DNA from: a virus
Taxonomy: Duplodnaviria; Caudoviricetes
Virus record (IMG/VR): IMGVR_UViG_3300024500_000078
Span: 1-30,556 of that record
Length of the DNA: 30,556 nucleotides
Direction: 5' to 3' (one strand)
A program made the translations under genes and the position numbers. Positions 4,736-20,231 of this stretch are shown here, one piece after another. Positions within the stretch are counted from its first letter, which is position 1. Each line of letters begins with the position of its first letter. The notes under the pieces were generated by a model, which searched no databases, was not told the origin of the DNA, and worked only from the letters and a program-made list of their open reading frames with translations.

Positions 4736-4809
4736 GCGGATGTTGCATATTGGTAGTGCCTCTGCCTTCCAAGCAGAAGGGGTGAGTTCGATTCTCATCA
4801 TCCGCTCCA
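4736..4809 (+). tRNA. tRNA-Gly(TCC)
   Basis: GCGGATG/CATCCGC acceptor stem, TCTGC-CT-TCC-AA-GCAGA anticodon arm, GTTCGA T-loop, encoded CCA. Confidence 0.95.
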
Positions 4810-4810
4810 C

Positions 4811-4882
4811 GCCTTGTTAGCTCAGTGGTAGAGCACCGCTCTTGTAAAGCGGGGGTCCACAGTTCAAATCTGTGACGAGGCT
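4811..4882 (+). tRNA. tRNA-Thr(TGT)
   Basis: GCCTTGT/ACGAGGC acceptor stem, CCGCT-CT-TGT-AA-AGCGG anticodon arm, GTTCAAAT T-loop; no encoded CCA. Confidence 0.93.
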
Positions 4883-6491: not shown

Positions 6492-6663
6492 GGGAGATTG
6501 GGCATGCCCATGTAATGGATGTGCTAAGGCGGTGGCATTTGAGAGAAAACAATTAATCTCAGAAATAGAAAAACTAAAGGTAAAGGCATATTCAGAATTT
6601 GCCTATGATGAAGTAATTGAATTAATTAAAGGCAGAATGCCTAAGCCGAAGGAGAAAAAATGA
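6463..6663 (+). CDS. Small hypothetical protein (CPCxxC)
   Basis: GGAG RBS then ATG at 6463; ATGA overlap with the next gene. Confidence 0.6.
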   Translation: MADPNQTPSRGDWACPCNGCAKAVAFERKQLISEIEKLKVKAYSEFAYDEVIELIKGRMPKPKEKK

Positions 6664-7133
6664 TATATCATAAACACTTACTTGTAAATGCTAAAGTAAA
6701 GAATCCAATTAATACAGAACAACAGGGTATTGATTTTCTAACTAATCTGGTCAACCAGATTGATATGAAGATTATTAAGGGTCCATTTGCATCCTATGTA
6801 GATAAGGATGGCAATAAAGGCTTAACCGCTATCGTTATGATAGAAACTAGCCATATAGCCTTTCACATATGGGATGAGATAGACCCAGCTTTAATTCAAT
6901 TTGATCTATATACTTGTGGTCAACTAGAATTAGATAAGGTTATATCTATATTTAAAGAGACATTTGATTTGGTAGAGATGGACTATATTCTATTTGATAG
7001 AGAGAATGGCTTTGTTGTAGAAAATGAAGGGCGGGAAGCCGATGGTGTCTGGTATTCCAAATACCCTAATGGTAAAACGCCTGGACTAATGGATCCTAAT
7101 ATAGGCGGGAACAAAAAGAACCTTTGGGAATAA
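6660..7133 (+). CDS. speD: S-adenosylmethionine decarboxylase proenzyme (class 1B-like)
   Basis: HKHLLVN, GLTAIVMIETSHIAFHIW (ESH-like autocleavage site), FDLYTCG. Confidence 0.8.
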   Translation: MIYHKHLLVNAKVKNPINTEQQGIDFLTNLVNQIDMKIIKGPFASYVDKDGNKGLTAIVMIETSHIAFHIWDEIDPALIQFDLYTCGQLELDKVISIFKETFDLVEMDYILFDRENGFVVENEGREADGVWYSKYPNGKTPGLMDPNIGGNKKNLWE

Positions 7134-8107: not shown

Positions 8108-8137
8108 ATTCTACCATTATGGGGTGGGGGTTGGCAA
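8108..8137 (-). promoter_or_regulatory. SigA-type promoter
   Basis: TTGCCA-N18-TAGAAT with an extended TG. Confidence 0.6.
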
Positions 8138-8171
8138 CGAAAGGGGAACCAACCCCCACTTCTAGAGGATC

Positions 8172-8321
8172 CTACTTCTTACGTGAAGTAGGGTTTTCAG
8201 CGGTGAAAGTAATGCCCTTCTGAGCTGCCTCAGATAGAGCCTGCTTTGCTGCAGATGAGAAACGACCACGGGCTCCAACTGTAATGCCCTGGGCCTTGAG
8301 ATATTCACGCTTTGTTGCCAT
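8172..8321 (-). CDS. Lsr2-like DNA-binding-domain-only protein (49 aa)
   Basis: MATKREYLKAQGITVGARGRFS..., matching the Lsr2 C-terminal R..A..G..V..RGR AT-hook pattern; GAAAGGA RBS. Confidence 0.75.
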   Translation of the reverse strand: MATKREYLKAQGITVGARGRFSSAAKQALSEAAQKGITFTAENPTSRKK

Positions 8322-9184: not shown

Positions 9185-9402
9185 TATTTCTCCTCTGTTG
9201 GAATGCCAAGTATATCAGAGCCCACTGACAATAAATGGTGGGTGGCAGTAAGTTGTCCTGATACCCAGTTATACTCTACATCTAAATAAGCATAATCCTT
9301 ACAATTAGGGTCAAGAGCATCCATTTGTTCAGATAGTTTTTCTAAATCTTGTTGTAAACTAATCTGATGAATCTTCATATATTCAATTAATTGATTAGAC
9401 AT
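9184..9402 (-). CDS. Hypothetical protein
   Basis: 72 aa; its 3' end contains a promoter motif. Confidence 0.7.
   Translation of the reverse strand: MSNQLIEYMKIHQISLQQDLEKLSEQMDALDPNCKDYAYLDVEYNWVSGQLTATHHLLSVGSDILGIPTEEK
9209..9230 (-). promoter_or_regulatory. PafBC-type promoter motif 1
   Basis: TGTCAG-TGGGCTCTGA-TATACT. Confidence 0.75.
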
Positions 9403-9560
9403 TATTCAGCCACATACCCCTCTGCTAATAGGCCTTCAAAGAAATCCCAAATAGTTAATAGACCTTGCCTGGTTTCCTTATCGGACGGCGGCAGATAAAA
9501 TTCTGCCCTATTTAAAGTAATACCAAACTCTTGTATCTCCTTATATGTATAACCTAACAT
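9402..9560 (-). CDS. Small hypothetical protein
   Basis: 52 aa, MLGYTYKEIQEFG...GLLAEGYVAE; TAATG-coupled on both sides. Confidence 0.7.
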   Translation of the reverse strand: MLGYTYKEIQEFGITLNRAEFYLPPSDKETRQGLLTIWDFFEGLLAEGYVAE

Positions 9561-9781
9561 TAATCAACCTCAAAATAATATTCATCATCAGGAGTTAAAT
9601 TATAAAACTCATTGTAAGATTTCTTGATGTCATTGGAGGCAAATTCAATGAACTTATGTTCAGCATATTCCTCCCCCTCATCAAGGTTATTATTATTCCA
9701 ATCATCAAATAGTTGTTCTTCAATTTCTACTTGAATAGCCCCTAGAATATGTTCTCCTAGAGTATCTGTAAACATTTCCAT
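9560..9781 (-). CDS. Highly acidic hypothetical protein
   Basis: Start revised to the ATG at 9781, after AACGAAAGGAA. Confidence 0.7.
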   Translation of the reverse strand: MEMFTDTLGEHILGAIQVEIEEQLFDDWNNNNLDEGEEYAEHKFIEFASNDIKKSYNEFYNLTPDDEYYFEVD

Positions 9782-9808
9782 ATTATTCCTTTCGTTAGAC
9801 ATGGCTTA

Positions 9809-9830
9809 ATTATAGTTCATACCACCGACA
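9809..9830 (-). promoter_or_regulatory. PafBC-type promoter motif 2
   Basis: TGTCGG-TGGTATGAAC-TATAAT. Confidence 0.85.
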
Positions 9831-9959
9831 TTTGTCCATATGATGTGGATCACATAAAATGACTAATAGGTTAGTTTGTCTCATATGCTGAAATTCCTGT
9901 GAAATATATTTGACACACGTAAATGATCTATGCTATCCTCAGGTTTTTGCGGGCAGCTC

Positions 9960-10086
9960 TAAAAAAAGAAGTGGGGCCCTAGCAGTCTCTCCCTCTGCTG
10001 GGCCCCTGGTGTTTGGCTGCATCCACACTATGCATATTTAAAGACTTGGGCGAAAGGAACCCTGATAGCCTCACCAAACGTTTGTG
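9960..10086 (-). ncRNA. Candidate structured small RNA with an anti-Shine-Dalgarno loop
   Basis: Extended -10 TGCTATAAT (10092-10100), multi-stem fold, GC-rich terminator with a T-run at about 9960-10007, no convincing ORF. Confidence 0.5.
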
Positions 10087-10112
10087 ATTACATTATAGCA
10101 TATTTTAGTAGA

Positions 10113-10454
10113 CTAAACTGTAACCCCCAAATGATAATTGATAAATTCATCCCATGTGTGACCGTCTACCATTTTATTAACCATGTCAACATCAATTGTG
10201 GTGTCCCACGCTGCAAAGTTGCTTGGCTTATCTACAGCACCAATTCCATATCCAGTCTCATCCAGGACCTCATGCTGAATCATATGAGAAATAATCATAC
10301 GAATGCAATAAGATGTGTCTTCCCACCTTGGACGGGCATGGTTTAATGCTGCTGCTAATTTAATTTCCCATTCATCTTCTCCCCAATGACTGTACAGCCA
10401 TACCGCAGGCTGGTCCTCACCCTCATTGAAGATATAATTAATACGTGCTCCCAT
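10113..10454 (-). CDS. Conserved phage hypothetical protein
   Basis: MGAR...LYSHWG...RWEDTSY; 113 aa. Confidence 0.75.
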   Translation of the reverse strand: MGARINYIFNEGEDQPAVWLYSHWGEDEWEIKLAAALNHARPRWEDTSYCIRMIISHMIQHEVLDETGYGIGAVDKPSNFAAWDTTIDVDMVNKMVDGHTWDEFINYHLGVTV

Positions 10455-10647
10455 TTGTTACTTCCGCCTTTTCTTGTTGTGTGTTTTCAATGGATAAGTC
10501 TACAACTTCATAGGACCATTTGTCAAGGGCCTCTTTGAATTCATTGTAGTGGTGGCCACAGAAAAATAAATCTCCTGCCAAGCCTCTTGCTTGATATACA
10601 GCTTTGGCTGTGACACATTTATCACATCCGATAAATCTGTTACTCAT
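10438..10647 (-). CDS. Small zinc-binding protein
   Basis: CDKC...LFFCGHH motif. Confidence 0.7.
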   Translation of the reverse strand: MSNRFIGCDKCVTAKAVYQARGLAGDLFFCGHHYNEFKEALDKWSYEVVDLSIENTQQEKAEVTNGSTY

Positions 10648-10790
10648 AGATTACCGCCCTCTATCATGTCTGACAATCTATCTAGAATCCAAGAGTCAAT
10701 ATCTGAGATATCAATCTCACGCAGCTTCTCCATGATTTCTTCACGAGCATACTTATACCCGTCATCCCAACCGCTCTTGTAATCTGACAT
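10644..10790 (-). CDS. Small hypothetical protein
   Basis: 48 aa, MSDYKSGWDDGYKYAREE...; AGGAG RBS; ATGA overlap. Confidence 0.7.
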   Translation of the reverse strand: MSDYKSGWDDGYKYAREEIMEKLREIDISDIDSWILDRLSDMIEGGNL

Positions 10791-10791
10791 A

Positions 10792-11004
10792 TTATCTCCT
10801 ATAACCTGTTGGTTCGTATTCTGAGGTATAACTTTCAGTTAAATTATACTTATCACGAATGCGACTTACTTTCTCTATACTACCTGTTCCTATCTCGAAT
10901 GTCAAGGTGTCTTTGATATGCAATGGATCCAATCCAAGCACATCTGCCTCCCAGTAGGCCCTTTGCAGGGCCAACTGGTTTGGCGCAGTTAATTCAAAAT
11001 ACAT
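10792..11004 (-). CDS. Hypothetical protein
   Basis: 70 aa; TAATG coupling. Confidence 0.7.
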   Translation of the reverse strand: MYFELTAPNQLALQRAYWEADVLGLDPLHIKDTLTFEIGTGSIEKVSRIRDKYNLTESYTSEYEPTGYRR

Positions 11005-11543
11005 TACCAGTCCACGTCCGCATCTTCGACATCGAACGATTCAACAATAACGTCGCCGTTATATGCATCTAATGTTAATGTATCTTGGAGGAAGTAGCGG
11101 GCATCGAAATCCTCTACTTCATCTAATGGACAATCATAGCGAACATCAAATGTGATGCTGCCAGTGATTCTGATTTCTTGCTTTGGTTCATGACCAAAGA
11201 TTTCACATAAATCAGAAAGAATTTCTGACTTATCAGTGTTAGGGTTGTACCAACCTTGTGCAGTCATGTTATCAATAACTTGACCGATTTGCTTTTCCTG
11301 TTGTTCAAGACGAGCATTAGTAAAACCACGAAGACGGAACATCTCCATGATATCAGTACGCTTCATGTTATGCACAGTGTGTGTACCGTCAGTGTGTGAT
11401 TCAATTACATCAATAGTTGGATTGACATAGAGCATTCCCTCTAGGTCAACAACCTTGATAGTTTCATATGTTGCTTCGCCGTCAACAATATGTTTTACTG
11501 TGACGAGAGCATTTGGGTTGTATGTGTATGGTGCTGTCTCCAT
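11004..11543 (-). CDS. Acidic hypothetical protein
   Basis: 179 aa; TAATG coupling. Confidence 0.75.
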   Translation of the reverse strand: METAPYTYNPNALVTVKHIVDGEATYETIKVVDLEGMLYVNPTIDVIESHTDGTHTVHNMKRTDIMEMFRLRGFTNARLEQQEKQIGQVIDNMTAQGWYNPNTDKSEILSDLCEIFGHEPKQEIRITGSITFDVRYDCPLDEVEDFDARYFLQDTLTLDAYNGDVIVESFDVEDADVDW

Positions 11544-12316
11544 TAGATTTTCTCCATTCTGTAGTGTGGGACATGTTCAGCGTCTAAGTATACCTTATGG
11601 GTCGGACATTCCTTGATGGCATCAAGGTCTGCTTCACCTAGATAGTTGCAGGCAGAGCATAACTCATTATCACATTCTTCGCAATAGGATAGAGTGTTAT
11701 ATTCGTCACAATCTCTACATCTGTTTTCATAATCCATTTCAGAGATAACTTCTCCACGTAGGAATTCGCATTCTCCGCCCCAACCTGTCTCTTCCTCATA
11801 AGATAAGGTGAATAACAAACTTGGGTATTGTTCAGATAGTTTAGCAAGAGCAGGCATTGGTGGAGACCAAGCAGTATTAAAGTTATAATAAACTACAAGG
11901 TTCTCTCCATTAGGAGTAGGCCCCTCTATATATGTTTCAGGATATTTATCACCGTCTTTAACAGCAACATCCCATTTGGTTCCCCAGTTGACAACATTCC
12001 AGTTATACCAACCTTTGTCTTCTTGGGCTATTTTCATTGTATCTGACCACCACTCAGGGTCGTCTAAAGATTTCTCAGAACGAATAGGTTGTTGAACATA
12101 TTCTTGGTCTGTGATACCTGCTTGACGGTGGTTATAGATATTATAGAATGCAAATACAGGATTTGGATATGTGGTCTGAGAGACTTCCATTTCCTGTGTT
12201 TCCATATTCCATGAATCATGTAGCATGACAAATGGCTTGTTCATTTGACGAACAAGGTCATTTACTAAATCAGGATTACCCTCAATGGTTAATCCGTTGT
12301 AACACCAATTTGGCAT
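11543..12316 (-). CDS. YubB/DUF1281-like ferredoxin-fold protein with a C-terminal Cys cluster
   Basis: MPNWCYN, WYNWNVVNWGTKWD, FNTAWSPP; C-terminal CxxC repeats. Confidence 0.75.
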   Translation of the reverse strand: MPNWCYNGLTIEGNPDLVNDLVRQMNKPFVMLHDSWNMETQEMEVSQTTYPNPVFAFYNIYNHRQAGITDQEYVQQPIRSEKSLDDPEWWSDTMKIAQEDKGWYNWNVVNWGTKWDVAVKDGDKYPETYIEGPTPNGENLVVYYNFNTAWSPPMPALAKLSEQYPSLLFTLSYEEETGWGGECEFLRGEVISEMDYENRCRDCDEYNTLSYCEECDNELCSACNYLGEADLDAIKECPTHKVYLDAEHVPHYRMEKI

Positions 12317-12339
12317 TTTACTTCCTTTCTTTGGGCCCT

Positions 12340-12361
12340 ATTATAGTGGAGCACACTGACA
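12340..12361 (-). promoter_or_regulatory. PafBC-type promoter motif 3
   Basis: TGTCAG-TGTGCTCCAC-TATAAT. Confidence 0.8.
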
Positions 12362-12486
12362 AGAGTCAAGGATTTCCAGTGAATTTTTCTATATTCCCAT
12401 ATGATCTATGTCACGCCCGTAAAAGCTGCGGGACATCCTTAGTATATTGCGGGCGTCTCATTATTTGAAATTGTTATCTCATATTG

Positions 12487-12559
12487 CGATGCGTACGGGA
12501 TTTGAACCCGTGATCTCTACCGTGACAGGGTAGCGCTTTAACCGCTAAGCTAACGCACC
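12487..12559 (-). tRNA. tRNA-Asp(GTC)
   Basis: GGTGCGT/ACGCATC acceptor stem, CTACC-CT-GTC-AC-GGTAG anticodon arm, GGTTCAAATCC T-arm, G discriminator; no CCA. Confidence 0.92.
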
Positions 12560-12560
12560 A

Positions 12561-12594
12561 AATAAAAAGCGGGGGAATTTTTAGTTCCCCCGCT
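12561..12594 (-). terminator. Intrinsic terminator after the DUF932 gene
   Basis: AGCGGGGGAA/TTCCCCCGCT stem followed by TTTTATTT. Confidence 0.75.
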
Positions 12595-12609
12595 AGTGTA
12601 ATCATTTTA

Positions 12610-13614
12610 TTAGAATGATTTTACTAACTTGAGAATTTTATTTTTCTCAGCAGTAAGAACAGGGTCAAAGCCACTTGCGCCCGCCATTAGCGATTCGCTA
12701 TTGCCACGACCAGAACGGAAATAATCAAGGCGTTCAGTAAGCGCATTGAAAGCACCCCATTTTGTTCCCTTGATATTAGCGTTAGTTGGTGAGTTATGAT
12801 AAAGGTCATCAATCAAGATAACTTTATTTTCCCACTTTTTGAGAGCACCCTTAGAATCTTTTTCAGGCTTAGGATAAATTGTCTGAATCAATTTAGAGAA
12901 TTCAGCATTTGTAATTTCAGCCTTGAAAAGTTCCTGCGCTTCTTTCTCGAATTCATCAAAGTATCCAAGAGCAAGCCCAAGAGTTTCACGAGCAACTTGA
13001 ATTCGTCCCTCAACAGATTGTGTGTGACGAATTTTGAATGATTGCTTAGCATTACGCATAGCAAGATTCAAAGTGTTTTGGCATACAACACGAACAGGTG
13101 TAATCGCTGCTTGAACAGCAACAGAGCCGTCGTGAGATGTCCATACGATTAGATAAAGTTTGGTTTGGTCATTAGCACCTTGTGGGTCTAATACCATTGT
13201 GCGAGGAACATCAACGGTTCCAAATACAACTTTACCATTCTTTAGAGAGCCAGCAGATTCCCAACGGCACTCAGGGTTAGCGTCATGAATATTATCTGCG
13301 AAAGCAAATAATTCTTCATTTTGAACAGGCTTGTATCGCTTACCAACGGTAGCAAGAACATCAGTTCCGCCATTGAATGGATTTGTGCGAATAACTAATT
13401 GAGCATTAGAAACATCATTCCATGATTCTGAAATATGGTCAGTTAGTGGAGAGAGGCGAACATTCCAGTTAGCCAATTTTGCTTCTTCAAGCATTGTTTG
13501 AGTAGTCACATCTTCATCTTGTGAGAAGATACGATTTGCGAGATTGTGCCATGCGGGAGTTCCACGCAAAGCAAAGGCAACTTCATTGCCATTTGTTTCA
13601 AGGTTATGAGCCAT
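12610..13614 (-). CDS. DUF932 family phage/plasmid protein (TIGR03299-like)
   Basis: MAH...PAWH, YKPVQN, ESAGSL, SHDGS, TPVRVVCQNTL, IRHT, GTKWGAFNA. Confidence 0.88.
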   Translation of the reverse strand: MAHNLETNGNEVAFALRGTPAWHNLANRIFSQDEDVTTQTMLEEAKLANWNVRLSPLTDHISESWNDVSNAQLVIRTNPFNGGTDVLATVGKRYKPVQNEELFAFADNIHDANPECRWESAGSLKNGKVVFGTVDVPRTMVLDPQGANDQTKLYLIVWTSHDGSVAVQAAITPVRVVCQNTLNLAMRNAKQSFKIRHTQSVEGRIQVARETLGLALGYFDEFEKEAQELFKAEITNAEFSKLIQTIYPKPEKDSKGALKKWENKVILIDDLYHNSPTNANIKGTKWGAFNALTERLDYFRSGRGNSESLMAGASGFDPVLTAEKNKILKLVKSF

Positions 13615-13647
13615 GATTTTTTCCTTTCGATTGTTAGATTGAGCCTA

Positions 13648-13669
13648 AGTATAACAGACCCCACCGACA
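13648..13669 (-). promoter_or_regulatory. PafBC-type promoter motif 4
   Basis: TGTCGG-TGGGGTCTGT-TATACT. Confidence 0.85.
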
Positions 13670-13735
13670 TTTGTCTATAGTTAGTTAGACATTAGGGCAA
13701 AACGGACATGTGATCAATCTCATATTTTTTCAGGG

Positions 13736-13767
13736 TTTTCCACAGGCAGCCGTAACGCTGTGGATAA
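13736..13767. promoter_or_regulatory. Inverted pair of DnaA boxes
   Basis: TTTTCCACA-N14-TGTGGATAA (the second is a perfect TTATCCACA on the minus strand). Confidence 0.6.
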
Positions 13768-13768
13768 C

Positions 13769-13786
13769 CCCGCACATATTTGCGGG
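13769..13786. repeat. CCCGCA-N6-TGCGGG palindrome (repeat family member)
   Basis: Also at 15851-15868, 17347-17363 and 19152-19169; degenerate at 12416-12432 and about 9936-9953. Confidence 0.7.
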
Positions 13787-13853
13787 CAGCTTGATCGGGG
13801 AAGTTGGGGCGGGAATCTAGATGATTACACAGTTCAAACCCGCCCCAAGATTA

Positions 13854-14036
13854 TTATGCTCCGATTTTTACCATAGCCCAACGCAAACCTTTTTCAGTTT
13901 CTAAACCAAGTTTTGTAAGTGTTGGTCTAACTGAAATAATTTCGCTAATTGTGCCAGTAATTCCTGATTTACCAGTTGTAAAGACATCGCCTTTTTTATA
14001 GAAGCGACCCTTCTTAGTATCTAGAATTGGTGACAT
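13854..14036 (-). CDS. Small SH3/KOW-like protein
   Basis: YKKGDVFTTGKSGITGTISEII; paralog of 14611-14787. Confidence 0.7.
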   Translation of the reverse strand: MSPILDTKKGRFYKKGDVFTTGKSGITGTISEIISVRPTLTKLGLETEKGLRWAMVKIGA

Positions 14037-14109
14037 TTTATTTCCTTTCGTTTGTTGGTGTGTTGGTGGGCAGTTTTACCTTAGGTGATACCCAGCACCA
14101 AATCTCTAA

Positions 14110-14529
14110 TTAGAGATAACGAGCAATAGCATTGTAAGTTGAAGTGCTTACAACTTCCTCGTCCGTCATTTTGAGAATACGAATTGCGTTCTCAATTTCC
14201 TCTACCATTTCCTTATACTGCCAATCGTGGTAAGTATCAAAGTCCTTAGTAGGTTCAACAGGTAGTTCAATAGAACCAGCAGGTAAATCAAAATCTACAT
14301 TTACCATACCATTGTATCGGACATTAGCACGGACATTTTCCGCCTTTGCGATTTTAGCAAGAGCAAGTTTAGCAATTTCTTTACTCCATTTTTCTTGAGC
14401 CTTTGAGTATCTTTCCTCATTGACTTTCTGATTAGCCTTATCCTTTTGGATTTGTGCTAACTTAGTTTCAAGAGCCTTGATTACCTTTGTGGTGGCAATC
14501 TTTACATTTATGGCTTTTCCTCTACTCAT
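14110..14529 (-). CDS. Lys-rich hypothetical protein
   Basis: 139 aa; AACGAAAGGAAA RBS. Confidence 0.8.
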   Translation of the reverse strand: MSRGKAINVKIATTKVIKALETKLAQIQKDKANQKVNEERYSKAQEKWSKEIAKLALAKIAKAENVRANVRYNGMVNVDFDLPAGSIELPVEPTKDFDTYHDWQYKEMVEEIENAIRILKMTDEEVVSTSTYNAIARYL

Positions 14530-14565
14530 TTGTTTTTCCTTTCGTTTGTTTGTTTGTGTGAGAGA

Positions 14566-14587
14566 ATTGTAGCAGAGCCCACCGACA
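14566..14587 (-). promoter_or_regulatory. PafBC-type promoter motif 5
   Basis: TGTCGG-TGGGCTCTGC-TACAAT. Confidence 0.85.
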
Positions 14588-14610
14588 TTTCGGTGAGCCC
14601 TGCCATTGAA

Positions 14611-14787
14611 TTAGGCTAGGCTATCAGCAGAGATAGTTGTCCAGCGTGTTTCTTTTGTTGGTAGTTCCAACAATACACGCACCGAGCCAGATGCGTTAGG
14701 AATAATCTCTTTGATTACGCCTGTTTTCTTTGACTTTAGGGTGGTGAATAAATCGCCAACCTTGTAAGTATAACCATTTATGGTCAT
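14611..14787 (-). CDS. Small SH3/KOW-like protein
   Basis: 58 aa, MTINGYTYKVGDLFTTLKSKKTGVIKEII...; GAAAGGA RBS; below the ORF-track cutoff. Confidence 0.75.
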   Translation of the reverse strand: MTINGYTYKVGDLFTTLKSKKTGVIKEIIPNASGSVRVLLELPTKETRWTTISADSLA

Positions 14788-14817
14788 TTTGCTTCCTTTC
14801 TATTAGTAGGTGGGTAG

Positions 14818-14839
14818 ATTATAGCAGGGGCTACCGACA
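14818..14839 (-). promoter_or_regulatory. PafBC-type promoter motif 6
   Basis: TGTCGG-TAGCCCCTGC-TATAAT. Confidence 0.85.
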
Positions 14840-14862
14840 AGTGGCAAGCCCTTGCTAATGAT

Positions 14863-14878
14863 TGTGAGATTTATCACA
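14863..14878. promoter_or_regulatory. CRP/GlxR-type site
   Basis: TGTGA-GATTTA-TCACA. Confidence 0.7.
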
Positions 14879-15137
14879 ACCAAGCCTCTAGGTGGTGAGC
14901 CTCGACAATAGCCGAAGCGGGAGCCGTATTTTTATCCCTCCAAGTAATTGGGGAGGGTAGGTCAATAAGGCGTTCATAGTCCTCATCATAGTAAGCATCA
15001 ATAGCATCAATACAAGGTTGAACCATTGATCGTGGGACGGGTGGGTAATGATTAGCGGATAAGTGAATAGCTATACTATCCTCTAAAGATAAACCTAAGT
15101 CTAGTTCAGCAAGTTCAGTAGCAAAATTACTCCCCAT
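14874..15137 (-). CDS. Conserved phage hypothetical protein
   Basis: HLSANHYPPVP...IVEAHHLEAWL; 87 aa. Confidence 0.8.
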   Translation of the reverse strand: MGSNFATELAELDLGLSLEDSIAIHLSANHYPPVPRSMVQPCIDAIDAYYDEDYERLIDLPSPITWRDKNTAPASAIVEAHHLEAWL

Positions 15138-15402
15138 TTTCTAATACCTCATCTCTCATTGTTTCCATTTCATCAATAGTAGCCATAAGTTCTTTTACCT
15201 GAGTTTCAGTTAGCAAAATTTTAGTAGCCTTATCTATTGCGAGAGAAGCAAGCATACAAGAATAAGTATAAATAGATTTAGCGAATTGTTCGTCATCTAA
15301 TTCTTTAGCGTGATAGCAGAAAGCCTGAGCAAAACCCATAATTTCCTCATCAAAAATACTTTCTTCAGTTGCCTGAATAAGAGCGGTTGCGGTTGATAGC
15401 AT
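15127..15402 (-). CDS. Hypothetical protein
   Basis: Start revised to the ATG at 15402, after AACGAAAGGAAA. Confidence 0.75.
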   Translation of the reverse strand: MLSTATALIQATEESIFDEEIMGFAQAFCYHAKELDDEQFAKSIYTYSCMLASLAIDKATKILLTETQVKELMATIDEMETMRDEVLENGE

Positions 15403-15430
15403 TTTTTTCCTTTCGTTGTGTGGTGGGTAG

Positions 15431-15452
15431 ATTATACACCTACCCACCGACA
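15431..15452 (-). promoter_or_regulatory. PafBC-type promoter motif 7
   Basis: TGTCGG-TGGGTAGGTG-TATAAT. Confidence 0.85.
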
Positions 15453-15454
15453 TT

Positions 15455-15706
15455 TTAGGCTAGGGCTAGGTAAGCCTGACCGTAGCCTTCATTTACACGG
15501 TCTAACTCATCCTGAATTTCAGAGCGGGATAAGAGAGATACTTTACCAATTAACTCACGAATTGCAGATTCGTTCATTTGAGTAAATACCTGTGCAGGCA
15601 CTCGTTGAATTTGAGCATACATTGAACCTTCAGGATTAATTAAAGATACAAAGTCTACACCGTCTACTGAAAACGGGTAGGATTTCCAATTTGAGAAGTT
15701 GGACAT
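15455..15706 (-). CDS. Hypothetical protein
   Basis: 83 aa; AACGAAAGGAAA RBS. Confidence 0.8.
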   Translation of the reverse strand: MSNFSNWKSYPFSVDGVDFVSLINPEGSMYAQIQRVPAQVFTQMNESAIRELIGKVSLLSRSEIQDELDRVNEGYGQAYLALA

Positions 15707-15736
15707 TATTTTTTCCTTTCGTTTGTTGATAGTGGA

Positions 15737-15758
15737 ATTATAGCGTAAGCCTGCGACA
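15737..15758 (-). promoter_or_regulatory. PafBC-type promoter motif 8
   Basis: TGTCGC-AGGCTTACGC-TATAAT. Confidence 0.75.
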
Positions 15759-15791
15759 TTATCTAATCCATTATCGGCGTGTCGCCGTGTT

Positions 15792-15807
15792 TGTGAGATT
15801 TCTCACA
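15792..15807. promoter_or_regulatory. CRP/GlxR-type site
   Basis: TGTGA-GATTTC-TCACA. Confidence 0.7.
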
Positions 15808-15817
15808 ATTCCCGTGA

Positions 15818-15849
15818 ATATCCACAGGTCCACTTAAATCTGTGGATAA
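15818..15849. promoter_or_regulatory. Inverted pair of DnaA boxes
   Basis: ATATCCACA-N14-TGTGGATAA; same spacing as 13736-13767. Confidence 0.6.
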
Positions 15850-15964
15850 CCCCGCAATATATTGCGGGCATTTTACAGTTTTGTCAACATATAAATTATT
15901 AATATAAACGGTGACAGTAACAATGCAATAAATAAAATAGCTGCAACAGATCCAAGGAGCTCTA

Positions 15965-16684
15965 TCATTTTTTACTCGCAGAAAATCTAATATCAGCCTT
16001 ATTAAATACACACAATCCACATGACACACATGCGCTGCCATTAGTTGAAATCAATGGAATTTGTTTATTATTTTCAGGACACTTAGCACCGACCTTGCCA
16101 GTTAATTCTTTCATAACGCTTTCGGTGACAGCAAACGTTTTGCCTAAGTATGCAAGACGGACATTATGCAAATCACGCAATGCGCCTGCAATTTCTTTAT
16201 TCTCATCGTCGGTAGAAAAATAAAGAGACAGATTAGGAATGTCAATTAGAATTGGTACAGCAGAATAAACACGTGTATAAACCCAAAATTGAACATCCGC
16301 ATGACGATTAATTACAGTCTTCCACGCATATGCGTAGGTATCTGAAAAGAAATCTCCGTCCCAATGGATACGGAATAATTTTTCTGCAGACTTTTTATCA
16401 CAATCTTTTTTAAAATCAACAATCATTTCATCCAGAAGAGAAACCATAGTTTCAACATCTGCATTCTTAAGTAATTCCCAATTGTGTAAGAGGACCGCTC
16501 TTACTCCCTTGTATACTCTTTCAAGTTTTCCTGCATAGCAAACGCTTTCACAAACACTAGTGGCACCAGGACACGAGAAATCTTTTCCAGCAGGTAATCC
16601 GAAGGTGTTGGCAATTGTTGGGGTTTTTCCATTTTTTGAGACGGCATTAGCGACCTTTCTATCGTTAGAACGTTTTAATTTCAT
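15965..16684 (-). CDS. GP88-family protein (mycobacteriophage gene product 88-like; Cys-rich)
   Basis: FGLPAG..SCPGATSVCESVCYA, FRIHWDGDF, FWVYTR, CP...CVSCGLC; start revised to 16684 after AACGAAAGG. Confidence 0.8.
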   Translation of the reverse strand: MKLKRSNDRKVANAVSKNGKTPTIANTFGLPAGKDFSCPGATSVCESVCYAGKLERVYKGVRAVLLHNWELLKNADVETMVSLLDEMIVDFKKDCDKKSAEKLFRIHWDGDFFSDTYAYAWKTVINRHADVQFWVYTRVYSAVPILIDIPNLSLYFSTDDENKEIAGALRDLHNVRLAYLGKTFAVTESVMKELTGKVGAKCPENNKQIPLISTNGSACVSCGLCVFNKADIRFSASKK

Positions 16685-16708
16685 GAGAGACCTTTCGTTA
16701 GAGGGCCC

Positions 16709-16730
16709 ATTATACACGGGCCCACCGACA
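16709..16730 (-). promoter_or_regulatory. PafBC-type promoter motif 9
   Basis: TGTCGG-TGGGCCCGTG-TATAAT. Confidence 0.85.
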
Positions 16731-16731
16731 T

Positions 16732-17229
16732 TTACCAAGAGGAATTGTAATAAAAGGACAATTTGTCGAAATCGGACAATTTGAACACCCGATCAAGTTT
16801 CTTGATAGTGTCCTTGATATCTTGCCAATACCATTCATCAATATCGGTATTGCCAAAGAAAAATCCACCTTGTGGCGGCAGCAAACTAGGGTCCTTAGCG
16901 AATAAGGCTTGACGGCAGGTTTCCCTTAATTCCTTTAATTTATCGTGTGATACATAGTATTCGCCACAATTATCTTCACCATTTTGTACATTATCTACAA
17001 ACCATTTGTGTATTTGATTAGACTTACGCCAATAAGCACAAGTAACTTCAACATTTACGCCATAAATATCTGTAGCAACATCTGACATTTGAGAGGTAGA
17101 AACAATATCTTTCCATAGAGGATTAATTGCTTCAGGACTATCATAAGACAAGTCTTGATTTTCTTGTAGGACCTGCCAATTTACTTTTTCCACATATTTC
17201 TTAGCGTGGAGATACATATCTAAACCCAT
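16732..17229 (-). CDS. Conserved phage hypothetical protein
   Basis: MGLDMYL...YWRKSNQIHKWF...LLPPQGGFFFG...YNSSW family pattern. Confidence 0.85.
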   Translation of the reverse strand: MGLDMYLHAKKYVEKVNWQVLQENQDLSYDSPEAINPLWKDIVSTSQMSDVATDIYGVNVEVTCAYWRKSNQIHKWFVDNVQNGEDNCGEYYVSHDKLKELRETCRQALFAKDPSLLPPQGGFFFGNTDIDEWYWQDIKDTIKKLDRVFKLSDFDKLSFYYNSSW

Positions 17230-17259
17230 AGTTATTTCCTTTCGTTGGGATACGCAGCA

Positions 17260-17281
17260 ATTATAGCGTAAAAGGCTGACA
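17260..17281 (-). promoter_or_regulatory. PafBC-type promoter motif 10
   Basis: TGTCAG-CCTTTTACGC-TATAAT. Confidence 0.8.
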
Positions 17282-17308
17282 TTTTCAGCGACACGCCGTC
17301 AAAATTCC

Positions 17309-17324
17309 TGTGATAAATCTCACA
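17309..17324. promoter_or_regulatory. CRP/GlxR-type site
   Basis: TGTGA-TAAATC-TCACA. Confidence 0.7.
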
Positions 17325-17380
17325 TCTACTTAACGACACGCCCGACCCCGCAGCTACTGCGGGCTTAGTTGAAATTTCAA

Positions 17381-17527
17381 CTAATCCCAATTCATAGTTT
17401 TACCAACAGCGGTTTTTTTATGTTTTTGTTTTCGCTTGTAAATTTTTTTACTAGGAATTGGAGTTGCGGCATTTGATCTCCGCAATTCCAAAACTTTTTT
17501 TATTCTTTCTTTATTTGGTAATTTCAT
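17381..17527 (-). CDS. Small very basic protein
   Basis: 48 aa, MKLPNKERIKKVLELRRSNAATPIPSKKIYKRKQKHKK...; AAAGGA RBS. Confidence 0.7.
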   Translation of the reverse strand: MKLPNKERIKKVLELRRSNAATPIPSKKIYKRKQKHKKTAVGKTMNWD

Positions 17528-17545
17528 TTTCTGTCCTTTTTTTAT

Positions 17546-17734
17546 TTAGTTACTGAAATTTGGAATTTTGTAATTTGAAGCCGAATAAAATTTAGTGGCG
17601 TCAAATCTTTCGTTATCTCTTGCGAACATCTCCGCAAAATCTACAACCATTTTAGAAAAAACGGCTGGGTGAGTTTTATCTGAAACATACCGCAGAATTT
17701 CTGCGGTAGCAACATAGTCTTTTCTTGTCATCAT
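17546..17734 (-). CDS. Small conserved phage protein
   Basis: MTRKDYVATAEIL...DNERFDATKF. Confidence 0.75.
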   Translation of the reverse strand: MMTRKDYVATAEILRYVSDKTHPAVFSKMVVDFAEMFARDNERFDATKFYSASNYKIPNFSN

Positions 17735-17943
17735 TATTTTTCAACCACCCTTCTACCTTCACGATAGAAAATTTTTGTGTAGCATTTTCCGCTAGGTGTA
17801 AATAAATTTACAGTTGAGTATTCGTTAGCAAATCCCCAATCAACATACTTAGCAAATTCTTTGTGTGCTTGTAGTTCATCTGAATATTGAAAAACATAAT
17901 CAGGGGTTTTGCTTTCATCATAGGTTACAGTTATTTTATACAT
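17734..17943 (-). CDS. Hypothetical protein
   Basis: 69 aa; GGAGG RBS. Confidence 0.75.
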   Translation of the reverse strand: MYKITVTYDESKTPDYVFQYSDELQAHKEFAKYVDWGFANEYSTVNLFTPSGKCYTKIFYREGRRVVEK

Positions 17944-18140
17944 TAGTTAGCCTCCGCAGTTTCAAATAGAGTTCCTGTATCAACTACGCTTTTATCATAG
18001 TCAAGAATTATTTTGTATGGATTACATTCGCAATACTCAAAATCATAGTCGCCGTCAGGTGATACCCAACCCGATACGCCTTGTCCATAGCACTCATCAC
18101 AATTTAGAATTGTGTCAATTAGTTCTGTTGTTGTTTTCAT
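17943..18140 (-). CDS. Small zinc-binding protein
   Basis: CDECYGQG...CEC. Confidence 0.75.
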   Translation of the reverse strand: MKTTTELIDTILNCDECYGQGVSGWVSPDGDYDFEYCECNPYKIILDYDKSVVDTGTLFETAEAN

Positions 18141-18142
18141 TT

Positions 18143-18265
18143 TTAGTTTTCCTTTCGTTCTGTTGTTGGAATTGTAGCAGTTAGCACCGACAAGGCTTCA
18201 GCCTTGCTTGCTTCACGCTGAGAGATAACATAAGACTTGAAGTCTTCGAGAGAATTGAATTTCAT
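18143..18265 (-). CDS. Small peptide (40 aa)
   Basis: MKFNSLEDFKSYVISQREASKAEALSVLTATIPTTERKEN; AACGAAAGGAAA RBS; the 3' half also encodes the next promoter and RBS. Confidence 0.65.
   Translation of the reverse strand: MKFNSLEDFKSYVISQREASKAEALSVLTATIPTTERKEN
18171..18192 (-). promoter_or_regulatory. PafBC-type promoter motif 11
   Basis: TGTCGG-TGCTAACTGC-TACAAT. Confidence 0.8.
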
Positions 18266-18292
18266 TAGTTTTCCTTTCGTTTAGTTGATTAG

Positions 18293-18314
18293 ATTATAGC
18301 GGAAGCCACCGACA
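18293..18314 (-). promoter_or_regulatory. PafBC-type promoter motif 12
   Basis: TGTCGG-TGGCTTCCGC-TATAAT. Confidence 0.85.
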
Positions 18315-18315
18315 T

Positions 18316-18531
18316 TTAGTAGTCGGTAAGCCTCACAGCGACAGTAGCCCATTGGTCTTGAATTGACCCTGTTGGGCGGTAGCGAATAGCAAAGTGTTCC
18401 CAACCCTCTGGCGGATAAGTATCCTCACGCTTTTCAGCAAAGTTTATAATTCCACCATTGAAACGGCGGGATAATGAAGTAGGCGCATAGTATTGGTCTA
18501 CTAGTAAATCTACAATTGAATAACTTCTCAT
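18316..18531 (-). CDS. Small beta-rich hypothetical protein
   Basis: 71 aa; similar to 19773-19970. Confidence 0.75.
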   Translation of the reverse strand: MRSYSIVDLLVDQYYAPTSLSRRFNGGIINFAEKREDTYPPEGWEHFAIRYRPTGSIQDQWATVAVRLTDY

Positions 18532-18625
18532 TAGTTTTCCTTTCTTTAGGTTGGCAATTTTACCAAAATTTTACGGGCTTTACAAATCCAAATCGGATTT
18601 TCTCAAATTTTGAGACGCTTAGCCT

Positions 18626-18641
18626 TGTGAGAAATCTCACA
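18626..18641. promoter_or_regulatory. CRP/GlxR-type site
   Basis: TGTGA-GAAATC-TCACA, upstream of a TTGTAA-N17-TAAAAT promoter (about 18557-18585, minus strand). Confidence 0.7.
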
Positions 18642-18759
18642 AAGCTCCCTCTTGAAATAAGCCAATTTCAAGGTTTAGCAATTCTTCAGGCGTAGCCTCG
18701 CTGAGATCAACCCAGCCAGCACCTTGTTCATCTAATCTAAAAATTTCAATGTAACCCAT
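18637..18759 (-). CDS. Small acidic peptide (40 aa)
   Basis: MGYIEIFRLDEQGAGWVDLSEATPEELLNLEIGLFQEGAL; GAAAGGA RBS. Confidence 0.7.
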   Translation of the reverse strand: MGYIEIFRLDEQGAGWVDLSEATPEELLNLEIGLFQEGAL

Positions 18760-18777
18760 TATTAGTTATCCTTTCTA

Positions 18778-18984
18778 TTAGTATCCAATAATTTCTTCAC
18801 CATAGTATTCTATGGCTTCAGGTAATCTCATCATACCTTTGTATTCTTTACATCTTGGGCAAAAACTATTCCACCCATCTGTCATTATTGAGCAAAATAC
18901 GCAAATTTTATCCATAGCGCATAAGCCTTTTTCTTCGATAATGTCGAAAGCATTTACTTTATTATTTTTATTTAGTGTAGTCAT
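18778..18984 (-). CDS. Small zinc-ribbon protein
   Basis: CVFC...CPRC; start revised to 18984 after GAAAGGTGG. Confidence 0.75.
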   Translation of the reverse strand: MTTLNKNNKVNAFDIIEEKGLCAMDKICVFCSIMTDGWNSFCPRCKEYKGMMRLPEAIEYYGEEIIGY

Positions 18985-19021
18985 TTTAGACCACCTTTCT
19001 TTTTTACTATCTAATAACTGA

Positions 19022-19043
19022 AGTATAACAGGGGGGTCTGACA
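19022..19043 (-). promoter_or_regulatory. PafBC-type promoter motif 13
   Basis: TGTCAG-ACCCCCCTGT-TATACT. Confidence 0.8.
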
Positions 19044-19082
19044 TTTACTGACCAGTAATGCCACAAATCGGACATTTTGTTT

Positions 19083-19098
19083 TGTGATAAATCTCACA
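19083..19098. promoter_or_regulatory. CRP/GlxR-type site
   Basis: TGTGA-TAAATC-TCACA. Confidence 0.7.
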
Positions 19099-19214
19099 TT
19101 TTTCGGGGTTTTCCGTGAATCTACTTAAATCGGACATAACGGTACAAATCGCCCGCAAAAGACTGCGGGCAGCTGCCGATTTTGTCAAATCGACACGCCG
19201 ATCCGTTTTGTGTT

Positions 19215-19367
19215 TTAGAACACACGCTTTCTGCGCTTGTAAATCTTGTAAGCAATAACGCCCACTACTACTAACGCCATACCTAGGGGAGAGAGGTAGA
19301 AATCAAATTGGGCGGTTTCAAAAGCAAGCCCATCGCTAGTGATATCTATTACTAAGTATCTATCCAT
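19215..19367 (-). CDS. Small single-pass membrane protein
   Basis: 50 aa, ...LSPLGMALVVVGVIAYKIYKRRKRVF (TM segment plus basic tail); GGAG RBS. Confidence 0.7.
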   Translation of the reverse strand: MDRYLVIDITSDGLAFETAQFDFYLSPLGMALVVVGVIAYKIYKRRKRVF

Positions 19368-19373
19368 TTTTAT

Positions 19374-19496
19374 TTACTCCATTTCCAAATCAAAATCAAA
19401 ATCATCATCAAAATCATTATTGAATTCGTGTTCATCGCCCCACACCTTTGGTGTGATAGGCTCTAAATCTGCCTGTATTGTATCCCATTTAGTCAT
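19374..19496 (-). CDS. Small highly acidic peptide (40 aa)
   Basis: MTKWDTIQAD...EFNNDFDDDFDFDLEME; TAATG-coupled. Confidence 0.65.
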   Translation of the reverse strand: MTKWDTIQADLEPITPKVWGDEHEFNNDFDDDFDFDLEME

Positions 19497-19621
19497 TAGT
19501 TATTTTCCTCTCTTACGCAATCGCAAGCGTCAATGGTGTAGTCATTGTTATCGCCATAGAATAGATAGCCTACTCCGTGGCAAGCCTTACAATCAAATTT
19601 TAGTGTTTGATACATTTTCAT
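19496..19621 (-). CDS. Small zinc-binding peptide (41 aa)
   Basis: CKACHGVG...CDC; AACGAAAGGA RBS; paralog of 17943-18140. Confidence 0.7.
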   Translation of the reverse strand: MKMYQTLKFDCKACHGVGYLFYGDNNDYTIDACDCVREENN

Positions 19622-19649
19622 TTAGTTTATCCTTTCGTTAGTTGAGGTC

Positions 19650-19691
19650 TTATTTGCTAGGCTCACCCTTTCGGTTTATTTGCTAGGCTCA
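19650..19691 (-). repeat. 16-bp direct repeat in a 5' leader
   Basis: TGAGCCTAGCAAATAA at 19650-19665 and 19676-19691. Confidence 0.8.
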
Positions 19692-19715
19692 TACCTCTTA
19701 TTTAGTTATAGTGGA

Positions 19716-19737
19716 ATACTATCCGATAGCACCGACA
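19716..19737 (-). promoter_or_regulatory. PafBC-type promoter motif 14
   Basis: TGTCGG-TGCTATCGGA-TAGTAT. Confidence 0.8.
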
Positions 19738-19765
19738 TTTTCAAGCCGACACGCTAGGGTGTAGG

Positions 19766-19781
19766 TGTGAGGTTAGTCACA
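19766..19781. promoter_or_regulatory. CRP/GlxR-type site
   Basis: TGTGA-GGTTAG-TCACA. Confidence 0.65.
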
Positions 19782-19970
19782 CGCTACGGCTACGCTGCGA
19801 TAGGTGTAGCCACCTGTATTCTTGCGTATCTCTACTAGATACGCCTCAGCGTTTTCATACCATACGGCATGAGGGTGTTTCTCAGCCGATACGATTTCGC
19901 CCTCTACGGAACGGCTACGATAAGGCTTTCCTACTAGTAGGGACTGGACATTGTATAAGTTAGCGGACAT
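19773..19970 (-). CDS. Small beta-rich hypothetical protein
   Basis: 65 aa; GAGAGGT RBS. Confidence 0.75.
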   Translation of the reverse strand: MSANLYNVQSLLVGKPYRSRSVEGEIVSAEKHPHAVWYENAEAYLVEIRKNTGGYTYRSVAVACD

Positions 19971-19998
19971 TTGCTACCTCTTTCTTTCTAATACGGGA

Positions 19999-20020
19999 AT
20001 AATAACACAAGGGAGCGACA
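19999..20020 (-). promoter_or_regulatory. PafBC-type promoter motif 15
   Basis: TGTCGC-TCCCTTGTGT-TATTAT. Confidence 0.7.
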
Positions 20021-20048
20021 TTATCAAGACGACACGCCGCATAGGGTG

Positions 20049-20064
20049 TGTGATTTACTTCACA
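20049..20064. promoter_or_regulatory. CRP/GlxR-type site
   Basis: TGTGA-TTTACT-TCACA. Confidence 0.65.
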
Positions 20065-20174
20065 CCCTTAGCATGAGCAAGTTGCTCAGCATAGTCGGGG
20101 TCTGATACTGAATCAGCACCAAACTCTAGATAAATATCTAGATAGATTTCGTCATAGTAATCATTGTAGTCCAT
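20055..20174 (-). CDS. Small Asp/Tyr-rich peptide (39 aa)
   Basis: MDYNDYYDEIYLDIYLEFGADSVSDPDYAEQLAHAKGVK; GAAAGG RBS; first gene of the minus block. Confidence 0.7.
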   Translation of the reverse strand: MDYNDYYDEIYLDIYLEFGADSVSDPDYAEQLAHAKGVK

Positions 20175-20209
20175 AGTTAGACCAACCTTTCTTTATCTTG
20201 ATACCTAGT

Positions 20210-20231
20210 ATCCTACCATAGGGGTCTGACA
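20210..20231 (-). promoter_or_regulatory. PafBC-type promoter motif 16
   Basis: TGTCAG-ACCCCTATGG-TAGGAT. Confidence 0.75.

Follow-up and report, generated by a model that had tools for sequence, protein, structure and literature searches.

Staphylococcus RsaE and the actinobacterial 6C RNA are host-encoded regulators that mask several ribosome-binding sites (RBSs) through seeds in C/U-rich loops; to our knowledge their targets share no dedicated tag, and we know of no such seed that has moved between loops of one scaffold. The C4 RNA is a small structured RNA encoded by phages, with a multi-stem junction and antisense bases in its loops, that acts in trans on one linked immunity operon of a temperate phage and is processed by RNase P. 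The likeness of the RNA described here to C4, an antisense RNA of phages P1 and P7 catalogued as RF01695 (PMC2864571), lies in the multi-stem junction with antisense bases in loops and is one of general topology only. In phage T4, the RegB endoribonuclease shuts off early mRNAs via the Shine-Dalgarno motif, cutting GGAG (PMC9409239). Lastly, Pope et al. 2011 (PMC3203893) report that in cluster K mycobacteriophages the RBSs of non-structural genes bear repeats named Start-Associated Sequences (SAS), of which each K1 genome has one inverted copy; these authors left open whether the binder is RNA or protein.

The window, by which we mean the whole 30.6-kb virus record analysed, holds a locus that recalls each of these systems in part. 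Its predicted RNA gives no match to the RF01695 model and, in a further difference from C4, would address 8-15 leaders of a lytic-type phage via one shared tag; we place it outside C4, as a putative trans-acting anti-Shine-Dalgarno (anti-SD) RNA. With RsaE and 6C it shares a pyrimidine-rich single-stranded seed complementary to target RBSs, but it has no Rfam match. Whereas RegB is a cutting protein, recognition in the window would be by RNA pairing, with no nuclease implicated. Set against SAS as described in PMC3203893, the window's tag is alike in that: 1) both are repeated, asymmetric, RBS-overlapping motifs a few bases ahead of start codons, in one orientation and in a non-structural region; 2) both conserve bases that 16S pairing does not explain (in the window, the C of CGAAAG); 3) both have a single inverted copy away from gene starts (in the window, nine sense copies and one inverted). 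The motifs themselves differ, as leaders in the window read AACGAAAGGAA and not the 13-bp SAS consensus of that paper.

A structured RNA in a probably early gene block

Judged by its 334-aa DUF945/DUF932-type protein, the virus has its nearest cultured relatives among Streptomyces BE phages (~50% identity), whilst near-complete relatives (G001-G005) span 104-116 kb. All five of the latter carry a WhiB gene, which points to actinobacteria as hosts, and the RNA runs that contain the locus are of freshwater or riverine origin. The locus lies inside a leftward block of small genes at about 7.8-20.3 kb, which is probably of the early class because of: 1) 16 PafBC-type promoters, TGTC(G/A)(G/C)-N10-TA-N3-T (window 9230-20231, minus strand), in agreement with the PafBC consensus as given in PMC8635444; 2) an lsr2-like gene at 8172-8321; 3) synteny with Streptomyces BE phages, whose 11-kb terminal repeat (PMC5764925) is filled by genes matching the block. 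The window also encodes a tryptophan-halogenase-like gene, a SAM decarboxylase, a ribonucleotide reductase and three tRNA genes (Table 1).

Every element that the initial annotation had listed for the RNA, from the extended -10 through the stems and loop to the terminator and its U-run, is present, with the difference that the helices are joined in a three-way junction and are not separate hairpins. The minimum-free-energy and centroid structures from ViennaRNA both reproduce this fold exactly, although on the strength of one sequence it does not reach significance (z -1.83; equalled by 9 of 200 shuffles). The complementarity to the RBS that had been noted at 10051-10059 is exact, but only seven of the nine bases lie in the P2 loop, where they are unpaired with a probability of 0.99-1.0; the U and G at the two ends of the segment close the loop as a wobble pair. 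A reading of this segment as the RBS of a plus-strand gene was rejected, there being no start codon at RBS spacing downstream.

Table 1. Coordinates of the predicted RNA, its parts, its predicted targets and other features (window positions unless a locus is named)
Feature	Position	Strand	Basis or remark
Predicted non-coding RNA, ~125 nt, three-way junction and terminator	9960..10086	-	fold and model matches
Extended -10 promoter element TGCTATAAT (TGnTATAAT), without the PafBC-type box of neighbouring early promoters	10092..10100	-	predicted
Conserved three-way-junction core: P1, P2a/P2b with asymmetric internal loop, junction, P3	10011..10079	-	
P1	10079-10073 with 10017-10011	-	
P2a	10072-10067 with 10046-10041	-	
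P2b	10062-10059 with 10051-10048	-	
P2 loop UCCUUUC	10058-10052	-	
Junction strand UAAAUA	10040-10035	-	
P3	10034-10030 with 10022-10018	-	
Anti-RBS segment UUCCUUUCG	10051..10059	-	
Intrinsic-terminator-like hairpin with U-run, loop holding GGAGAGAC	9961..10006	-	stem with compensatory changes
Terminator stem; U-run	10006-9973; 9970-9961	-	
CGAAAGGAA leader tag/RBS of the gene directly following the RNA	9786..9794	-	predicted target
CGAAAGGAA leader tag/RBS of the 334-aa DUF945/DUF932-type gene	13621..13629	-	predicted target
CGAAAGGAA leader tag/RBS	14042..14050	-	predicted target
CGAAAGGAA leader tag/RBS	14536..14544	-	predicted target
CGAAAGGAA leader tag/RBS	15407..15415	-	predicted target
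CGAAAGGAA leader tag/RBS	15713..15721	-	predicted target
CGAAAGGAA leader tag/RBS	17236..17244	-	predicted target
CGAAAGGAA leader tag/RBS	18149..18157	-	predicted target
CGAAAGGAA leader tag/RBS	18271..18279	-	predicted target
Second hairpin after the lsr2-like gene, loop showing CCUUUCGUUG / UUCCCCUUUCGUUG	8124..8159	-	possible second anti-tag display
Tryptophan-halogenase-like, SAM decarboxylase, ribonucleotide reductase and three tRNA genes (listed together)	374-1948, 6660-7133, 25020-26951, 4736-4882, 12487-12559		
Inverted SAS hairpin loop, cluster K1	L466:29871-29883 (Anaya); L469:18635-18647 (Angelica); also L470-L474		

By its sequence, the window RNA would have a promoter and a terminator of its own. 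Across 78 aligned homolog rows, a -10 stands within 110 nt upstream in 64 (42 distinct; TG in 40), and the 14 rows without one begin right after a stop codon. A late-type promoter was considered for the RNA, given the missing PafBC-type box, and rejected: extended -10 elements number 23-38 genome-wide against 13-28 in shuffled sequence, so near the shuffled values that no promoter class can be assigned to the RNA. An AGTC(A/G)ACT-like motif at 10107-10114 (minus strand), upstream of the promoter, is seen in many homologs and recurs once or twice at promoters outside the early block. Contigs, which do not give ends, strand or level, cover the RNA in two of four RNA runs; one of them stops at 9967 inside the terminator and another runs across it, whilst the runs X18 and X19 do not cover the RNA and are uninformative either way.

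Relatives were drawn from the DUF932-type gene (best 80 of 285), and 77 of these 80 loci were searched, three near-duplicates being left out. A covariance model was made from 16 copies, none of them of the window's lineage, and run over 93 sources. A single RNA copy was found in 70 of the 77 loci; the other seven end 88-1570 nt past the gene, short of the RNA site, so that within this sample the RNA is present in 70 of the 70 loci long enough to hold it. One strong copy was found in each of G001-G005, and the window RNA scores 31.1 bits (E 2e-4) against the model built without it. Removal of one spurious weak match from 48 distinct aligned rows leaves 47 distinct freshwater copies. In an alignment that was fitted to the model and includes the spurious row, 15 of 21 pairs change on both sides and 92.6% of cells pair, against 26-47% in slid controls; the fold that the initial annotation had drawn from one sequence is thus conserved in related phages.

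The same core lies downstream of the same DUF932-type gene in the Streptomyces phages Yaboi and Bmoc and was found by blastn in 92 Streptomyces phage records. Nine of nine further Streptomyces phage loci, including that of the BK-type Annadreamy, score 13-27 bits, and the Streptomyces phage Forrest reaches 60 bits with a second model. Taken alone, 13 Streptomyces-type copies covary (11 of 22 pairs, MAFFT alignment), and a model made only from them finds the window RNA as its sole match in the window (21.6 bits, E 0.007). Model searches drew a blank in Rhodococcus phage Trina, in the 8.8 kb of Streptomyces phage Coruscant that they covered and in G007, which is 27% complete; Arthrobacter phage Atuin gave no better than E 0.26. 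The core probably has an older role of its own, in binding a protein or in keeping the RNA stable, and acts as a scaffold on which a movable anti-RBS module is carried.

The element is almost certainly a real structured RNA: chance and a bare terminator are both ruled out by the motif count (10 against 0.18 expected), the homolog matches and the covariation. Rfam offers no family for it. A search of the window returned only the three tRNAs at gathering score, with two chance matches to the terminator, and five homolog loci gave no C4 match and no family; resemblances to hammerhead, pistol and flavivirus xrRNA elements were dropped, having no Rfam match. Host-encoded copies were likewise rejected, as nine pattern matches in genome contigs do not score with model R1 and a search of 151 actinobacterial genomes gave one weak match (E 0.007), which seems to be due to chance in U-rich sequence. 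Loose pattern searches for the RNA returned mostly chance matches. The literature searched, which includes few subscription papers, describes neither this RNA nor any anti-RBS RNA from phages of this kind. Fremin et al. 2023 (PMC10690425) mined IMG/VR and report about 8,500 DNA-virus candidates; the readable tables of that paper hold no matching sequences, and the fold may be listed, unnamed, in its alignment files.

The displayed motif and the leader tag

CGAAAGGAA occurs ten times in the window, against 0.18 expected: nine times on the minus strand, in the leaders of Table 1, and once on the plus strand within the RNA, where the chance of a complement falling inside the 127-nt stretch is ~4e-4. 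The initial annotation had counted about 10 genes with this RBS; the exact sites number nine, and the shorter GAAAGGA is found 15 times on the minus strand. Predicted targets comprise 9-15 leaders over 11 kb. In five genomes, with leaders predicted by script, CGAAAG stands in 44 of 157 leaders of the predicted early block and in 1 of 491 elsewhere (block vs rest, by genome: 9/37 vs 0/100, 8/30 vs 0/97, 9/28 vs 0/102, 10/33 vs 1/110 and 8/29 vs 0/82). AGAAAG and other GAAAG forms are found outside the block, CGAAAG almost never.

Pairing with the 16S tail would not account for this preference. Across 301 sampled genomes of the actinobacterial phylum, the 16S tail is CCTCCTTTCT in 180 and CCTCCTTTCG in two, with unpublished flags on seven of the former and one of the latter (G128, G009, G182, G056, G247, G026, G156, G234). 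As tails are mostly CCTCCTTTCT, the ribosome would favour A where the phage keeps C, and the C is left unexplained by 16S pairing; the displayed loop has a G that reads it.

The position of the motif in the RNA varies between lineages. Amongst the 47 distinct freshwater copies, 45 hold CUUUCGUU in the P3 loop, as UUCCUUUCGUU (type A), UUACUUUCGUUGG (type B) or UUUCUUUCGUUGG (type C); the other two are of the window's lineage (W), which has a short P3 and displays the motif in the P2 loop, as UUCCUUUCG. A quick tree nests W inside type A, among P3-loop phages (support 85-92), which argues that the motif changed loops without being lost. A search that ignored the loop and used the junction and P3 only (144 loci screened; metagenome scan over 15 of 64 parts), gave five distinct W copies, and four of the five keep CCUUUC in the P2 loop while the P2b stem changes. 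In the W copy L618 the loop reads CCGUCA, and in L595 an A replaces the tag-reading G. Types W and A have one inverted motif copy per locus, and the loops of L053 and L223 are complementary to a whole RBS-spacer-AUG.

Outside the freshwater phages, the motif is reduced or displaced: BE copies have only CCUUUCAAU, at the 3' end of P1 (all nine printed), and BK-type copies, which read CACCUUUCU, have CCUUUC or CCUUUUC 5' of P1 (three of three). Several BE leaders read ACGAA(A)GG, and the BE tail is without the G. L430 has a bare core without the motif, yet its upstream gene bears a full tag. We also considered a switch in which the junction strand would pair with the 5' part of the P3 loop, and dropped it, as changes in the junction are not compensated.

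Loss of the loop coincides with loss of the tag in one relative. G309, of W type with the loop CCGUCA, has AACGAAAG in none of 29 early-block leaders, including orthologs tagged elsewhere, with two leaders retaining CGAAAG and one ACGAAAGG in 109 kb; in G310, where the loop is intact, AACGAAAG stands in 5 of 24 leaders. This co-loss is one case, and the sequence of G309 reaches no further than 8.3 kb upstream of the RNA. The leaders of L618 show no new tag that would fit its altered loop. For loop types W, A, B and C, GAAAGGA stands in 67%, 51%, 29% and 21% of leaders and CAACGAAAG in 9%, 7%, 20% and 22%, the latter being higher where the loop extends to UUGG. The shift goes the way that pairing would predict; as the groups are related and kin share both loop and leaders, this trend is not independent evidence. 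A compensatory GAAAGTA RBS was not found in type B phages, nor a perfect long target near the RNA in types B and C. A single long target for the extended loop was also rejected, the pattern occurring in 9 of 353 loci, seven of them the RNA itself; the best genome-wide partners of the extended loop are ordinary early leaders.

Pairing and its possible outcomes

Since an exposed loop is exactly complementary to a shared RBS, silencing by base-pairing is likely. We hold with reasonable confidence that the loop pairs with the leaders, and on balance lean towards a trans-acting anti-RBS RNA that represses the early block. From its own predicted promoter, the RNA would be transcribed and accumulate as a stable transcript, and its exposed loop would base-pair in trans with the CGAAAGG(AA) RBS common to the probably early genes. 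A loop-leader helix of 7-9 bp would then outcompete the 16S tail, so that tagged RBSs are masked and early translation is shut off as infection proceeds, in a role that would be the counterpart of RegB in T4. The energies set a condition on this scheme: the 9-mer helix of the window stands at -12.0, with an opening cost of 1.9 kcal/mol, against -9.8 for the 16S-tail helix, and as this leaves the loop-leader helix with no advantage in strength over the 16S one, the RNA would repress only if abundant or aided by a helper. Mean duplex energies hardly differ between own and foreign leaders (by 1.5 kcal/mol at most), and the best match is with the own group for only some loop types.

The trans-acting anti-SD RNA put forward in the initial annotation is partly borne out: the RNA is structured and conserved, its displayed motif is kept while flanking stems change and has moved between loops, the target motif is confined to the early block, and loop and tag are lost together in one relative. 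What that account missed is that the scaffold predates the anti-RBS loop and is also found in copies that have no such loop. If repression is the outcome, a lytic-type phage times infection by an RNA that reads a tag in the RBSs of a whole gene class, where the comparable job in T4 is known only from a protein nuclease. If the pairing model fails, there is still an uncatalogued structured RNA family in abundant freshwater actinophages and Stanwilliamsviridae.

The age of the scaffold lends itself to another reading, in which the main function lies with the core, as the binding site of a ligand or of a protein from phage or host, or as a guard of a 3' end, while the loop was added secondarily or is a protein site complementary to the tag by chance. 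Freshwater and Streptomyces phages alike keep the core, whilst the motif is absent (L430, L618) or reduced (BE, BK); the 14 promoterless rows of 78, placed after a stop codon, resemble a 3'-UTR element; and a UUCGUUG loop recurs after lsr2. We nonetheless judge this unlikely, because it leaves unexplained a complement of 8-11 nt to a tag confined to one block, the motif kept through a move between loops, and the joint loss in G309.

Evidence for pairing is blind to sign and timing, and the RNA could pair with the same leaders in order to buffer, stabilise or store early mRNAs, or to set a threshold against leaky PafBC-driven expression. A duplex no stronger than the 16S helix would suit such an outcome, as would the BE phage RNA, which, like its neighbouring genes in the terminal repeat, follows a TTGACA-type promoter. 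This seems quite improbable to us, however, since the paired bases are the Shine-Dalgarno core itself, the masking of which normally blocks initiation, and since in five freshwater genomes the promoter of the RNA is without the PafBC-type box of early promoters.

CCUUUC, common to the window's lineage and the BE and BK copies, also matches the 16S tail, and a loop mimicking the 3' tail of 16S rRNA might mask GAAAGG-type RBSs of the host (host shut-off) or serve as a decoy for an anti-SD-recognising factor or nuclease of the host. We give this very little weight: the near-invariant CUUUCGUU (45/47) differs from the 16S tail (CUUUCU) at the very place where the tag does, and types B and C have lost the CC. 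That the motif acts in cis or as DNA, in a kissing loop with the purine-rich terminator loop (where GGAGAGAC, kept in 5/5 lineage copies, can pair with CUUUC using a wobble) or as an inverted operator (the tag lying just downstream of early promoters, an operator-like position), is hardly credible, as L618 keeps GGAGAGAC without the loop, the P3-loop majority has unrelated terminator loops, and a DNA site needs no loop placement in a covarying stem.

The inverted SAS of cluster K1 and neighbouring elements

Repression through a shared RBS tag may have a counterpart in cluster K1. In the regions fetched, the inverted SAS was located in Anaya (15 forward copies, one reverse) and Angelica (12 and one), and a long hairpin has its core CCUCCUAUCC as loop, within structured sequence that follows a promoter-like element (Table 1). 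The hairpin stretch is conserved in 150 records; across seven aligned rows the loop is kept in four, variant in two and lost in one, and 5 of 16 pairs change on both sides. No inverted copy was found in the regions fetched from TM4 and Pixie. We put the stretch forward as a candidate anti-SAS RNA. It is not homologous to the window's scaffold, giving no match with model R2, and the parallel is independent support for the design, not for the function of the window RNA. The Angelica copy lies under an annotated hypothetical gene (92).

A broader proposal can be made only tentatively: large actinophages may barcode the RBSs of a whole temporal class and switch that class off by one small RNA, built from an old junction scaffold with an exchangeable module at the P3 loop, P2 loop, 3' tail or 5' leader, and the same logic on an unrelated hairpin would explain the SAS of cluster K1. 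If true, the function of SAS, left open in 2011, would have an answer testable in cultured phages, K1 on M. smegmatis and BE/BK on Streptomyces.

Within the window, the hairpin after the lsr2-like gene has a loop sequence that recurs in relatives, where TCGTTG is found in 14 of 40 distinct lsr2 3' ends against a background of 0.009 per 60 nt. The terminator loop of the RNA (9986-9994, minus strand) is kept across the window's lineage despite changes in its stem; GUCUCUC, the complement of GGAGAGAC, lies between the RBS and AUG of the gene at 16684 and is absent from the G001 ortholog. GCCCGCA is repeated at 9954, 12454, 13787, 15869, 17364 and 19170 (minus strand), often with an inverted partner; copies precede several promoter regions, and the one 3' of the RNA is kept in relatives. 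In L085 (9490-9530), L101 and L110, a possible H-type pseudoknot leader followed by a hairpin stands directly upstream of a gene near the DUF932-type gene. Finally, in the terminal repeats of Yaboi and Bmoc (L354, L355), several leaders start with CATCGAAAGGG, which folds back onto a CCC(U/C) run some 40 nt ahead of the start codon to give a repeated 5' hairpin.
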